UHGV virus genome: UHGV-1570171
Source of the DNA: a virus
Length of the DNA stretch: 16,425 nucleotides
Strand: one strand, 5' to 3'
Shown here: positions 3,078 to 9,182 of the stretch, in pieces
Layout: each line of letters starts with the position of its first letter
Position numbering within the stretch: position 1 is the first letter of the stretch
Notes under the pieces: model-generated
What the model was told of the DNA's origin: nothing
Seen by the model: the letters and a program-made list of their open reading frames with translations, nothing else
Database searches by the model: none
Translations under genes and position numbers: made by a program

Positions 3078-3492
3078 GCGTTATCGCACTCCACAGATCA
3101 TCAAAAGAAATCATTACCGGTCCGTCACGACGCCAGAGAGTGATACTGTTACCCAGTTCATTAATCCCGGTACGGCGGATATCCAGATCAATACGGGACA
3201 CCACGCCGTCATCAATCATCCATTGCAGGCATTCGCGGATATACCCCCTTACCGTCTGCACCAGCTGATTGGTCAGTTTGCTGCGCTGAAGCAGCCACAG
3301 TCGGGAGCCGTAACGGTCATTCTGTACCGCAGGCCAGGTATCCCCCCACCATCCCATCGGGACGTCGGCGTTGTCATCAGGCTCCGCCCGCCGCCAGGTA
3401 AACAGGGAAATCACCACGGCGCGGGTCAGCGGATCCAGCGGTGCGCTGGCGCAGGTGCGTTTACCGTTCACCGTCAGCCACAGTTCCATCAT
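3064..3492 (-). CDS. GP46-family baseplate protein (Mu gp46 / gpW-like)
   Basis: 142-aa ORF between the spike and baseplate J genes; start overlaps the upstream stop (translational coupling). Size and position match Mu gp46. Confidence 0.7.
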   Translation of the reverse strand: MMELWLTVNGKRTCASAPLDPLTRAVVISLFTWRRAEPDDNADVPMGWWGDTWPAVQNDRYGSRLWLLQRSKLTNQLVQTVRGYIRECLQWMIDDGVVSRIDLDIRRTGINELGNSITLWRRDGPVMISFDDLWSAITHGGQ

Positions 3493-6513: not shown

Positions 6514-8421
6514 TTATCGTGGAAAACGAAAAGGGGAATACCCCACATCGTGCGTGATTTTCATCAGGGGATCGGCTTTGCCCGGTACATCAATTATCTT
6601 CATACCTGGCGGAGCATTCTCGAACGTGACTTTCAGCTCGCTGTGCTGTGTCATGGAAGAAGATGGATTCAACAGCGGAACATTGGGTTTGTACTGACTC
6701 AGGCTGGCCTGATACTGCTCGTACTCTTTACGATCAAAAAAAGGCGTCCAGTCTGAAGCCAGAAACAGCCCTTTATTATCCAGCCAGTTAACCGTATCTT
6801 CAGGAACAACACTTTCCAGAGTATCTTTAACCGGCTCATACATCAGGGTTCCCCAAAAACCATATACCCCGGCCTTCCCGATAAAGCCGCGGCCTTTCCC
6901 CATCAATCCCGTTTCTGCCGATACCTTCCCCAGCGTACGCATCTCTCTGGTCACTGCGGTAATGGATTTGGTAACGTCAGCAACCCATTTGGTTGCCATA
7001 AACAGGGCAATCGCTTTCAGAACAGTTTCCCATCCCCCCATCACCTGCGCCGTTTCATCTACCACGTGCCAGACTTTTTTTATGACAGGACCTACGGTTT
7101 CCCAGTTATCAATAATGAGGTAAGCGCCACCAACCAGAAGAGCAATCAGCCCCTTAGCAGGCGTCATATTCATCACACCGCCGAGAACTTTCATGATTCT
7201 GGACAAAGAGCCTGCAGCGGCCCCCACTGTCAGTAAAGCCAGACCGATTTTAGCAATGGTCTTAACGAGCTCCGGGTTTTCACGGACAAACGTTCTCACT
7301 TCCTCAAGGAGCGGTTTTACCGCTTCAAGACCATCATTAACCTCAGGAAGAAACGTTTCCCCCAGAGTGGAAGAAATGGCATCAAGTTGATTTTGCAGAA
7401 GTAAAAGCTGGTTTTCCGTCGTCGCTGCCCTCGAAGCATATTCCTTCTGCATCGAACTGCCATACTGCTGGGAATCCGCAACCCGCCTGAAGTTGGTACG
7501 CAACAAATCAAGGTTAGTCAGCAGAGGTGCTATCGCGCCCAGAGACTCTTTCCCGAACAGGGCATTCAGCACAGCTGCCTGTTTTTCTTTAGGCACTTTA
7601 GCCATCGCATCCAGTACAGACAGCATGGTTCCCCGGGCATCTTTCTGCATATCAGCAGCTAATTTCTTCGGATTGATCCGCAGAAAACGTAATGCCTGTT
7701 TCTGCGATTTTGTCGCGGAATTTCCCGCGGTCAGGGAAAGCATGAAGTTCTTGATCCCTGTGGCGGCAATTTCTGACTCCACGCCCATCCCGGCAATGGT
7801 TGCCCCCATTGCCGCGATTTCGCCGGAAGCCACACCTGCAACACCACCTAAAGGACCAATACGCGTAACAATATCGGAGATTTTCTTCGCATTCGCCGGG
7901 CCGGTATTACCAAGGTAGTTGATTTTGTCAGCCAGCCCGGCCACTTCATCCTGCGTCATATTAAACGCAGTACGCCACTGGGCCATCATCTGCCCGGACT
8001 CTTCAGCCGTGGTATCAAAGGCCACGCCCATCTTCACCGCATCAGTGGCAAACTGCATCAGTTCATCACGTGCAATCCCGGCCTGACCGCCAGCCGCCAC
8101 AATTTCCGCGATCCCGTCTGCAGACATGGGAAGCTCAGTAGACAAAGCGCGTACCTGCTCCGTCATGGCCTTAAACGCATCCGGCGTATCCAGACCGTCC
8201 ACCACTTTGCGGACATCAGCCATCTTCGATTCAAGGGTGATGGCTGATTTTACAGGGAGTGCCAGTGCCCCCATTATTGCAGTACCCGCCCCGGCAGCGC
8301 CCAGAGCAAGGCTGGAGACTTCTTTCTGAAACCCCTTAAGCTGACGCTGCATACCTTTAAGCGGGCCGGACAGCCTGTCAACGGCGGTGATGATGGCTTT
8401 CAGCTGAAAATTATCAGCCAT
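6514..8421 (-). CDS. tail tape measure protein
   Basis: 635-aa ORF with ATG at 8419-8421. Ala/Gly-rich, predicted helical, with hydrophobic Gly-rich segments typical of tape measure proteins. Sits between the chaperone and baseplate genes. Confidence 0.9.
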   Translation of the reverse strand: MADNFQLKAIITAVDRLSGPLKGMQRQLKGFQKEVSSLALGAAGAGTAIMGALALPVKSAITLESKMADVRKVVDGLDTPDAFKAMTEQVRALSTELPMSADGIAEIVAAGGQAGIARDELMQFATDAVKMGVAFDTTAEESGQMMAQWRTAFNMTQDEVAGLADKINYLGNTGPANAKKISDIVTRIGPLGGVAGVASGEIAAMGATIAGMGVESEIAATGIKNFMLSLTAGNSATKSQKQALRFLRINPKKLAADMQKDARGTMLSVLDAMAKVPKEKQAAVLNALFGKESLGAIAPLLTNLDLLRTNFRRVADSQQYGSSMQKEYASRAATTENQLLLLQNQLDAISSTLGETFLPEVNDGLEAVKPLLEEVRTFVRENPELVKTIAKIGLALLTVGAAAGSLSRIMKVLGGVMNMTPAKGLIALLVGGAYLIIDNWETVGPVIKKVWHVVDETAQVMGGWETVLKAIALFMATKWVADVTKSITAVTREMRTLGKVSAETGLMGKGRGFIGKAGVYGFWGTLMYEPVKDTLESVVPEDTVNWLDNKGLFLASDWTPFFDRKEYEQYQASLSQYKPNVPLLNPSSSMTQHSELKVTFENAPPGMKIIDVPGKADPLMKITHDVGYSPFRFPR

Positions 8422-8829
8422 GCTTCATCTCCTCATTTATACGGACGGCCTCTGCCTCCAGATCAGCAAAGTGGGAAATAGCCGTCCGGCGAAGTTCAAG
8501 GGGGTTTAATTTCCAGAACCACGCGACATTGTAGAATCGCTTCCGGAGGTCTCTTCCGTCTCCAAGCCGGTAAAAAAACGCATTACAATCATGCCTGCCT
8601 TGAAAATATCCAGCTTCGTCATCTGCGCTGCAGACGAGCGCGGGATCCCGGCCAGAAGCGGGATATATTTCAGCGCCACCTGACTGTCCATTTTCATACC
8701 ACCATCAGGCGAAACAGAGAAAGGGAACCCCAGCGCCTCAATCTCGTCATACGTAGGCTCACGTATTTCCAGCACATGCAGTGTTTCTTTGTGGGCGATG
8801 ATCGGTTTTTTAAGTACAAGCTCAATCAC
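8414..8829 (-). CDS. putative -1 frameshift fusion product of the tail assembly chaperone (gpGT / P2 E+E-prime-like)
   Basis: Coding-strand run of seven T (plus-strand A7 at 8572-8578) sits in codons CGT TTT TTT ACC. Slipping -1 there opens a frame reading YRLGDGRDLRKRFYNVAWFWKLNPLELRRTAISHFADLEAEAVRINEEMKHG. That frame ends at a TGA (8414-8416) overlapping the tape measure ATG, so it fills the otherwise non-coding 84-nt gap. Confidence 0.45.
8506..8829 (-). CDS. tail assembly chaperone (lambda gpG / P2 gpE-like), zero-frame product
   Basis: 107-aa ORF between tube and tape measure genes. GTG start at 8827-8829 overlaps the tube TGA (GTGA), with AAGGGG about 9 nt upstream. Ends ...MRFFTGLETEETSGSDSTMSRGSGN. 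Confidence 0.7.
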   Translation of the reverse strand: MIELVLKKPIIAHKETLHVLEIREPTYDEIEALGFPFSVSPDGGMKMDSQVALKYIPLLAGIPRSSAAQMTKLDIFKAGMIVMRFFTGLETEETSGSDSTMSRGSGN

Positions 8830-9182
8830 TGGTAATCCCCTTCTTCACCGTGGAACTCAAGATCAACCGTGCCTTCTTCGGCATTATGGTTCGCTTCACC
8901 GTGCAGCCAGGCGGACGACAATACATAGACCTGACCGTTCGCCAGCTCGGCAGTGATGGTCATCTCATCAGAAGAGGTGATTTTGCTCACCGGAAAATTC
9001 TTCGGCACCTTGAAGGTCCCTTTGACATAAGGTGCACGGTGAGTTTCCTTGCGGTCCACTGAACCGTCCAGGCCGATGATGTCATCATTAACCGTCCTGT
9101 TCATGGGCACCTCAATGCCGCCGGTCAGCGATAGCTGCTGACCGTCAATTTTGAAATAACAGGTTCCCCCGATACGGGCCAT
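8826..9182 (-). CDS. tail tube protein (Mu gpM-like)
   Basis: 118-aa ORF; ATG at 9180-9182 overlaps the sheath TAA (TAATG). Size and position directly after the sheath gene are typical of contractile-tail tube proteins. Confidence 0.8.
   Translation of the reverse strand: MARIGGTCYFKIDGQQLSLTGGIEVPMNRTVNDDIIGLDGSVDRKETHRAPYVKGTFKVPKNFPVSKITSSDEMTITAELANGQVYVLSSAWLHGEANHNAEEGTVDLEFHGEEGDYQ

Follow-up and report, generated by a model that had tools for sequence, protein, structure and literature searches.

In an SfIV-type prophage, the gene for the tail assembly chaperone very probably contains a programmed -1 ribosomal frameshift, a reading to which we give a probability of about 0.85. The window, that is, the whole 16,425-nt stretch of viral DNA that was analysed (UHGV virus genome UHGV-1570171), is an SfIV-type prophage of the SfV/ST64B/phiP27 group, with a Mu-like tail module encoded on the minus strand, where all the genes and reading frames described below are located. 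The original prediction, in which a -1 slip on a run of seven T residues fuses the N-terminal chaperone domain to a 52-codon extension in a G/GT-like arrangement, is supported by the position of the gene, the missing start codon of the extension, its conservation, the selection acting on it, and a geometry like that of phage P2.

The tail module and the short product

The order of the genes is tail tube (9182..8826), chaperone (8829..8506) and tape measure (8421..6514), as given by the Pfam families Tail_tube, Phage_TAC_7 and PhageMin_Tail, and the annotations of the records agree. The tail tube gene (118 aa, 8826..9182) matches PF10618 Tail_tube (E=2.4e-33), is named "tail tube protein" in the records of SfIV, vB_EcoM-720R4 and E. 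coli CRE1493, and lies directly upstream of the chaperone gene, with the TGA of the former overlapping the GTG of the latter (GTGA). The tape measure protein gene (635 aa, 6514..8421) matches PF10145 PhageMin_Tail (E=2.2e-42) and carries the same name in the records of relatives. The chaperone gene sits between the tube and tape measure genes, as in G/GT-type systems, and the 84-nt gap that had been noted between it and the tape measure ATG at 8421 was found again when coordinates were checked on the minus strand. This is the largest intergenic gap of the cluster, the other genes being tightly packed or overlapping. Of 5,426 complete E. coli genomes, about 211 carry this prophage segment with an identity of at least 95%.

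The zero frame of the chaperone gene (8506..8829) runs as originally described from the GTG at 8829 to the TAA at 8508..8506 and encodes a G/E-like short product of 107 aa, identified by translation, Pfam, PHROG and PGAP. It matches the Pfam family PF10109 Phage_TAC_7 ("tail assembly chaperone E/41/14") at 32.1 bits, above the gathering cut-off of 25, with residues 5-86 aligned to profile positions 3-78 of 79, so that the domain ends at residue 86, the second Phe of the heptamer described below. The protein also matches PHROG 166 "tail protein" (E=1.9e-25), and PGAP names the gene "phage tail assembly protein". Beyond the domain, the short product has a C-terminal tail of 21 codons (TGLETEETSGSDSTMSRGSGN, then TAA; 8506..8571) that appears unconstrained, judging from its zero-frame pN/pS of 1.0; among relatives this tail has 3, 8, 9 or 21 codons and its sequence is not conserved.

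The proposed slippery heptamer and the -1 frame extension

A sequence check confirms that the A7 of the plus strand at 8572..8578 corresponds on the coding strand to a T7 forming an in-phase X_XXY_YYZ heptamer, T_TTT_TTT, within CGT TTT TTT ACC (residues F85-F86; phase computed), the proposed site of a -1 tandem slip of two tRNA-Phe molecules. It is the only strict in-phase X_XXY_YYZ motif from the upstream -1 stop (8707..8705) to the zero-frame stop, which follows the heptamer by 21 codons. Other candidates were rejected: C_CCT_TTC at 8725 in the chaperone gene has a -1 run of only 4 codons, and heptamers retrieved by a relaxed filter, such as AAATTAA, do not have a true X_XXY_YYZ pattern. 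With 15 in the 22 genes of the window, in-phase heptamers can hardly be called rare, and the T7 site has the longest -1 run of them.

From 8572, the -1 frame is translated as YRLGDGRD...EEMKHG, a T/E'-like extension (8414..8572) with the 52 codons YRLGDGRDLRKRFYNVAWFWKLNPLELRRTAISHFADLEAEAVRINEEMKHG followed by a TGA at 8416..8414, which overlaps the tape measure ATG in 8 nt (ATGGCTGA); both features had been predicted, as had the early closure of the +1 frame, which ends at 8498..8496, about 3 codons beyond the zero-frame stop. The predicted fused product has 86+52 = 138 aa. The Shine-Dalgarno sequence of the tape measure gene, GAGGAG (8429..8434, 7 nt upstream of the ATG, read from the sequence), is embedded in the final codons of the extension, AAT GAG GAG ATG AAG CAT GGC TGA. 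The open -1 frame spans 8704 to 8417, and between the upstream stop (8707..8705) and codon 48 of 52 (before 8428) it contains no ATG, GTG or TTG. As in G/GT-type genes, the gap is therefore filled by an overlapping ORF in a second frame that has no initiation signals of its own.

The extension peptide is found by tblastn in phiP27, ST64B, YeP1-3, SfV/SfI/SfII and EPP-1 at 37-83% identity and matches PHROG 32181 (63 positions, unknown function; E=4.5e-6); searches of Pfam, NCBIfam and PDB sequences gave no family, model or solved relative for either the extension or the fusion. For detection of the fusion, the predicted Lys-C junction peptide is AGMIVMRFFYRLGDGRDLRK; the corresponding zero-frame chaperone peptide continues AGMIVMRFFTGLETEE... 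and has no lysine before the C-terminus, and trypsin would leave only FFYR at the junction, too small a peptide to be of use.

Conservation and selection in relatives

The relatives sampled comprise 112 loci from Escherichia, Shigella, Salmonella, Mixta, Edwardsiella, Yersinia, Citrobacter, Kosakonia, Buttiauxella and uncultured gammaproteobacteria, which give 60 distinct relatives. All of these have an in-phase heptamer, T_TTT_TTT in 42 and T_TTT_TTC in 18, followed by an extension of 50-55 codons, and in every one the codon before the heptamer (CGT, GGT or AAT) ends in T, while the amino acid it encodes varies. Seven phage genomes, down to 37-40% identity, carry T_TTT_TTT or T_TTT_TTC at the same codon, with -1 extensions of 52-53 codons and a stop located 5-8 nt past the beginning of the tape measure start codon. 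Most relatives share an extension ending of the ATGGCTGA type. The conserved core of the extension is RFYNVAWFWKLNP, at codons 12-24. The extension frame is at offset 2 in 62 of 64 distinct regions (tblastn), and the run is exactly T7 in all 78 IMG/VR contigs with an SfIV-type junction. Stops in the -1 frame of relatives, named in the original prediction among the observations that would speak against it, are absent from 110 of the 112 loci; the two exceptions are IMG/VR contigs with indels that bring the extension into frame, one with T8 (L036) and the other with an extra G 30 nt downstream (L035).

The proposed slip site is kept in diverged relatives, as expected of a G/GT-type gene, and the extension evolves as a coding sequence. 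The N-domain has a pN/pS of 0.26 in the zero frame; in the overlap that follows the heptamer, the zero frame has a value of 1.0 and the -1 frame 0.40, and in the gap that follows the zero-frame stop, the -1 frame has 0.15 and the two remaining phases 1.8 and 3.6. In this gap, variable sites are distributed over the three -1 codon positions as 8/5/24. These substitution patterns indicate that purifying selection changes frame at the heptamer.

Alternative explanations

The open frame alone does not exclude chance: with a -1 stop density of 0.065 in the genes of the window, 52 open codons have a probability of about 0.03, the prior for such a run in the window being about 0.03-0.08, and in-phase heptamers are common enough, as described above. 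The feature stands above chance because of its conservation and the frame-specific pattern of substitutions in relatives, and the same purifying selection rules out a chance ORF. A related idea, that mutation or a sequencing error in the homopolymer has produced the T7 and broken the frame of a single 138-aa gene, could draw on the two indel contigs that have both parts in one frame; nevertheless, the two-frame arrangement recurs in the other 110 independent loci, including the complete isolated phages SfIV, SfV, SfI, SfII, phiP27, YeP1-3 and EPP-1, and the T7 is invariant in the 78 SfIV-type contigs, and we consider mutation, error or chance highly improbable. Equally improbable is a separate small gene in the 84-nt gap, translated from its own start codon without any fusion. 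The match of PHROG 32181 to the -1 peptide implies that gene callers have sometimes called ORFs in this frame in relatives, and a few SfV-type relatives do have a GTG or TTG in the -1 frame 7-8 codons upstream of the heptamer; against this, the window has no start codon in the stretch given above, the core RFYNVAWFWKLNP lies upstream of every candidate start in most relatives, and no Shine-Dalgarno sequence precedes this core.

More thought is due to transcriptional slippage, in which RNA polymerase would add one U on the A7 template and the resulting U8 mRNAs would be translated into the same 138-aa fusion (...RFFYRLG...), a protein indistinguishable from the ribosomal product. A homopolymer of 7 U could act in this way by a one-nucleotide insertion in the mRNA, as in the slippage sites of IS elements and others, and the site is indeed a pure homopolymer at which no ribosomal stimulator was detected. 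E. coli genes strongly avoid UUUUUUU, which is depleted in all three phases (z = -14 to -21), and Sharma et al. attribute the depletion partly to transcriptional slippage or indel mutation (PMC4066793). On the other hand, 18 of the 60 distinct relatives have only six T followed by C, a shorter run that is still a canonical in-phase ribosomal heptamer; in contrast to transcriptional slippage sites, the relatives appear to keep the phase and the T6C variant rather than the length of the run, and no stem-loop was detected immediately upstream or downstream of the run. The phase of the run is invariant in relatives and polymerase slippage has no phase requirement, an argument weakened because the conserved Phe-Phe codons fix the phase anyway. 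Additionally, P2 uses TTTTTTG, with six T, and annotation and literature alike describe its shift as translational. Transcriptional slippage is judged unlikely, and we infer that the slip is ribosomal.

Proposed mechanism and the search for stimulators

In the proposed ribosomal mechanism, most ribosomes would read the zero frame to the TAA at 8508..8506 and produce the 107-aa chaperone, made of the PF10109 domain and a presumably dispensable tail of 21 residues. A minority would slip with tRNA-Phe in both the P and A sites on UUU UUU (8577..8572), moving back one base onto U UUU UU with full re-pairing, and would then read the -1 frame for 52 codons, with a predicted 138-aa fusion as the product and termination at the TGA that overlaps the ATG of the tape measure gene. 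From the parallel with lambda G/GT and P2 E/E+E', we infer that the N-domain common to both products would bind the tape measure protein and the extension would recruit the tail tube subunit, and that tail assembly would require the long product at a fixed low ratio to the short one.

U_UUU_UUU and U_UUU_UUC rank among the efficient -1 motifs (H_HH.U_UU.Y) in E. coli reporters, in which the bare heptamer without a stimulator gives only 0.33% frameshifting (PMC4066793). This value is far under the lambda ratio of roughly 1:30. RNA structure downstream of the heptamer, suggested as a check in the original prediction, was not supported in either of two window folds (z = -0.17 and -0.25); RNAalifold on 8 relatives gave -1.05 kcal/mol with no covariation or compensatory pairs, and an Rfam scan of 8300..8900 found no match at E<=1. 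A GGAG/CUCC hairpin seen by eye 6 nt past the heptamer is broken in several relatives and was rejected. No Shine-Dalgarno-like stimulator was seen by eye 6-17 nt upstream of the heptamer, a stretch that is not conserved in ST64B-type relatives. Because the bare U_UUU_UUU yields about 0.3% in reporters and no RNA stimulator or upstream Shine-Dalgarno sequence was detected, there is a slim chance that useful amounts of the fusion might need unconventional help, either a substantial share of RNA polymerase slippage on the U7 or stimulation by the nascent chaperone domain, whose conserved C-terminus, ...(V/M)xFF, would be located inside the exit tunnel or immediately beyond it.

Comparison with known systems

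Known from lambda G/GT and P2 E/E+E' onwards, the frameshift of tail chaperone genes is a textbook matter, and its conservation among long-tailed phages is established. The closest likeness is to E/E+E' of the P2 FETUD tail operon, which is also a myovirus gene located between tube and tape measure genes and subject to a -1 shift. In both cases an in-phase T-rich heptamer follows a ...GF(F/L) motif (GGT TTT TTG in P2, CGT TTT TTT in the window and GGT TTT TTC in SfV), the extension lacks a start codon and overlaps the beginning of the tape measure gene (gene T in P2) by 8 nt; the products have 91/142 aa in P2 and 107/138 aa in the window, and no stimulatory structure has been reported for the former or found in the latter. 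Pfam describes the family of the window's N-domain as "E, or 41 or 14", and a profile alignment of P2 E+E' with the fusion is collinear across both domains and the junction, albeit weak (hhalign E=0.0016, probability only 16%). The two systems differ in the last base of the heptamer, G in P2 and T or C in the group of the window, and in the surrounding tail module, which in the window is Mu-like and not P2-like. Moreover, the extensions of the window, SfV and YeP1 do not match Pfam PF06528 (P2 GpE') at E<=10, while P2 E' itself scores 78.7 bits (2e-22).

The same logic is found in lambda G/GT, although lambda is a siphovirus, its heptamer, G_GGA_AAG, differs from that of the window, and its T extension is much longer. 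In the short and long lambda products, neither of which is present in the virion, G binds the tape measure protein and T binds the major tail subunit (PMC5009743).

The tail module of the window is homologous to that of Mu, including relatives of sheath L, tube M, gp38/DUF2635, the DNA circulation protein N and gp45-48, and Mu gp41 is a chaperone of the same Pfam family, by family description, encoded in the same position, with a gap of 144 nt to the tape measure gene. Mu gp41 has 144 aa, and a -2 frameshift into the other frame has been reported for it (PMC2628397, PMC5009743). In the window, by contrast, the extension lies in the -1 frame, and closure of the +1/-2 frame comes shortly after the zero-frame stop; the conserved extension of relatives is also in the -1 frame, unlike a Mu-type -2 shift. 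A likeness between the extension of the window and the -2 frame extension of Mu was considered and rejected as not significant (hhalign E=0.38).

Annotation and significance

Neither slippage nor a 138-aa product is annotated in the GenBank, RefSeq and PGAP records examined, namely those of SfIV, SfV, phiP27, ST64B, F1055, YeP1, EPP-1 and vB_EcoM-720R4 and of a PGAP-annotated E. coli chromosome, and the SfIV genome paper lists the chaperone gene as a hypothetical protein. The literature searched contained no SfIV-type example of the two products being made in a fixed ratio, needed for tail assembly and absent from virions. The site in the window is an ordinary, unannotated example of the known lambda G/GT and P2 E/E+E' arrangement; the scientific addition is small, and the practical value lies in annotation. 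If help from polymerase slippage or nascent-chain stimulation were true, it would be a new mode of control of the tail-chaperone ratio. The T7 and T6C variants within the group offer a natural comparison for separating ribosomal from transcriptional slippage, and throughout the group the second product could be annotated simply by looking for a T_TTT_TTY heptamer and, in the extension, the conserved core (F/Y)(W/F)xxNP.

Organization of the proposed frameshift site

Frameshifting in tail assembly chaperone genes is a textbook phenomenon, of which we rate the present site a further, unannotated case; the second product is annotated in none of the GenBank, RefSeq and PGAP records examined. The tail assembly chaperone ORF runs on the minus strand from a GTG at 8829 to a TAA at 8508..8506 and encodes 107 residues, its stop lying where the original prediction had put it, and the 84-nt gap described there before the tape measure ATG (8421) is present and is the largest in a cluster whose adjacent genes mostly overlap. 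The proposed T7 run at 8578..8572 (minus strand) is indeed an in-phase X_XXY_YYZ heptamer (T_TTT_TTT, codons CGT TTT TTT ACC). The -1 extension (8572..8414, minus strand) comprises the 52 codons anticipated, reading YRLGDGRDLRKRFYNVAWFWKLNPLELRRTAISHFADLEAEAVRINEEMKHG, and ends at a TGA (8416..8414) lying 8 nt inside the tape measure gene (ATGGCTGA), so that the expected overlap with its ATG is found as well, and the +1 frame is short as foreseen, being closed at 8498..8496. Pfam PF10109 (‘Phage tail assembly chaperone proteins, E, or 41 or 14’) covers chaperone residues 5-86, thus the recognised domain ends on the heptamer’s second Phe. The tape measure Shine-Dalgarno sequence sits in the final codons of the extension (AAT GAG GAG ATG AAG CAT GGC TGA), and, since the extension stop overlaps the tape measure ATG, frameshifted ribosomes would end translation at the very start of the tape measure gene.

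The bare sequence features of the site are not conclusive against chance: there are 15 in-phase heptamers across the 22 genes of the window, the one at 8578 having the longest -1 run among them, and the chance of 52 codons staying open is about 0.03 at a -1 stop density of 0.065. The T7 run is the sole strict heptamer within the stretch where a shift could join both frames. What matters more than heptamer count or open-frame length is that the -1 frame contains no ATG, GTG or TTG from the upstream stop at 8707..8705 to codon 48 of 52, so independent initiation cannot express the extension.

Other slippery sequences were also observed. The tape measure gene (minus strand) has heptamers at 6736-6742, 7075-7081 and 6529-6535, namely in-phase T_TTT_TTT and A_AAA_AAA, with -1 frames that stop after 0 and 6 codons, and a C_CCT_TTT 4 codons before its stop, after which the -1 frame stays open for 33 codons and reaches into the next gene; these and the A/T runs of at least 7 (six in the 16.4 kb of the window) are probably incidental. 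An in-phase U_UUC tetramer (8603-8606, minus strand, codons ATT TTC) lies within the already open part of the -1 frame, and a single-tRNA slip there would join the frames differently (...LDIF/QGRHDCNAFFYRLG...). The tetramer is kept only where the D-I-F residues are kept, is not found in the SfV-type clade and is probably irrelevant.

Conservation and frame-specific selection

When searched by tblastn, the 52-residue extension peptide was found, unannotated, at the equivalent place in phiP27 (83% identity), ST64B and F1055 (73%), SfV, SfI and SfII (40%), Yersinia phages YeP1-3 (39%), and Edwardsiella phage EPP-1 (37.5%). In all of them the homologous codon is the site of a T_TTT_TTT or T_TTT_TTC, and the -1 extension has 52-53 codons, its stop starting 5-8 nt past the point where the tape measure start codon begins; their zero-frame tails vary in length and sequence. 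Two collection scans contributed 105 more loci from many enterobacterial genera and uncultured gammaproteobacteria, and the set pooled with the phage records holds 112 loci and 60 distinct gene sequences. Of these 60, 42 have T_TTT_TTT as the heptamer and 18 have T_TTT_TTC, and the preceding codon (CGT, GGT or AAT) always ends in T, with different encoded amino acids. Throughout the pooled set the first Phe codon is TTT and the extension spans 50-55 codons. Moreover, a pattern scan permitting 4-10 bases between SfIV-type flanks found exactly T7 in 78/78 contigs.

Selection was compared by frame as pN/pS, using Nei-Gojobori counts summed over all pairs of 39 distinct gap-free aligned sequences, pairs that are not phylogenetically independent. 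In the N-terminal domain the values were 0.26 (zero frame), 2.2 (-1) and 1.2 (+1); from the heptamer to the zero-frame stop they were 1.0, 0.40 and 1.2, and in the gap past that stop 1.8, 0.15 and 3.6, respectively. The variable sites of the gap number 8, 5 and 24 at -1 codon positions 1, 2 and 3. Together, these patterns indicate that selection moves at the heptamer from the zero frame to the -1 frame. Such a switch matches what is predicted for a translated fusion, and the 21-residue zero-frame tail appears, from these substitutions, to behave as unconstrained read-out.

In two relatives, a single reading frame runs through the chaperone domain and on into the extension. One locus (L036, IMGVR_UViG_2534681784_000009; 1700-1800) has T8 in place of T7 and a 139-aa ORF, and the other (L035, IMGVR_UViG_2529292715_000008; 1700-1800) still has the T7 run, with an additional G about 30 nt past it (CTCCGGGAAACG in place of CTCCGGAAACG) and a 140-aa ORF. 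Either sequencing errors in homopolymers or genuine mutants of defective prophages that make only the fusion could account for them.

Mechanism

The best-supported mechanism is tandem -1 slippage, in which two tRNA-Phe would slip together on U_UUU_UUU. Both heptamer variants seen in relatives fall in the H_HH.U_UU.Y class, which Sharma et al. (PMC4066793) place with the most efficient motifs for -1 shifting in E. coli. In E. coli reporters, frameshifting without a stimulator and with the IS3 pseudoknot was 0.33% and 10.2% for UUUUUUU, 0.12% and 7.6% for UUUUUUC, and 0.12% and 0.77% for the UUUUUUG of P2, and E. coli genes strongly avoid UUUUUUU (z -14 to -21) (PMC4066793). Transcriptional slippage on the U7 run would yield a protein identical to the ribosomal fusion. 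The ribosome is favoured by the unvarying phase of the run and by the T6C variant, which 30% of distinct relatives carry; a transcriptional origin appears the less likely one.

No stimulatory RNA structure was found in the window sequence (fold z-scores -0.17 and -0.25), RNAalifold on relatives gave -1.05 kcal/mol without covariation, an Rfam scan around the site returned no match, and no Shine-Dalgarno sequence is visible on inspection before the heptamer. This agrees with P2 and P2-like phages, in which a stimulator is likewise reported to be lacking (PMC3091744). In the SfV-type clade, 9 of 11 loci (L003, which is SfV, 3170-3190; L007, L015, L017-L019, L024, L026 and L027) have a perfect hairpin, TGCGCCAG-CTA-CTGGCGCA, about 45 nt downstream of the heptamer, made of codons for conserved C-A-S-Y-W-R; that distance is too great for a canonical frameshift stimulator, and the hairpin has no compensatory changes and is absent in the window’s clade.

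Genomic context and comparison with known systems

The 1-kb stretch around the heptamer matches Shigella phage SfIV and Escherichia phage vB_EcoM-720R4 at 99.1% identity, and a prophage of E. coli CRE1493 at 100%. Every gene of the window is on the minus strand, in the order portal, protease, capsid, head-tail genes, DUF2635/Mu gp38-like, sheath, tube, chaperone, tape measure, DNA-circulation protein and baseplate genes; record notes assign this arrangement to the SfV/ST64B/phiP27 type, which combines an HK97-like head with a contractile tail resembling that of Mu. Nucleotide similarity of ~96.5% to SfV, SfI, SfII and SKA5 ends within ~30 nt of the chaperone start codon (~8800), and the chaperone and tape measure proteins share <50% identity with their counterparts in those phages (SfIV paper). 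The pair seems to be exchanged as a single mosaic module, which fits a physical interaction of the two. The SfIV-type chaperone region (481 nt; at least 95% identity over at least 80%) occurs in 211 of 5,426 complete E. coli genomes; in ~860 further genomes the match (80-90% identity) is confined to the first 60-70 nt, the end of the tube gene, reflecting other chaperone/tape measure modules behind a conserved tube gene.

The Mu gp41 gene is housed in a homologous tail module, but a -2 shift is reported for it (PMC2628397, PMC5009743), whereas in the window it is the -1 frame that carries the conserved extension, the +1/-2 frame being closed; similarity between the two extensions is not significant. 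Closest in anatomy is P2 E/E+E’, whose slip site is GGT TTT TTG and whose two products measure 91 and 142 aa; there too the overlap with gene T, which encodes the tape measure, is 8 nt, and the E protein belongs to the same Pfam family as the N-terminal domain here. Six fusions aligned as a profile with P2 E+E’ match collinearly across the junction and the domains on either side of it, with a weak score (E=0.0016, probability 16%), and the extension gave no match to PF06528, which recognises P2 E’. By analogy, the fusion would work like P2 E+E’, the extension not being a demonstrable member of the GpE’ family. Extending to this phage type the roles described in lambda (PMC5009743), the N-terminal domain would act on the tape measure protein and the extension on the tube subunit, at a fixed ratio of the two products.
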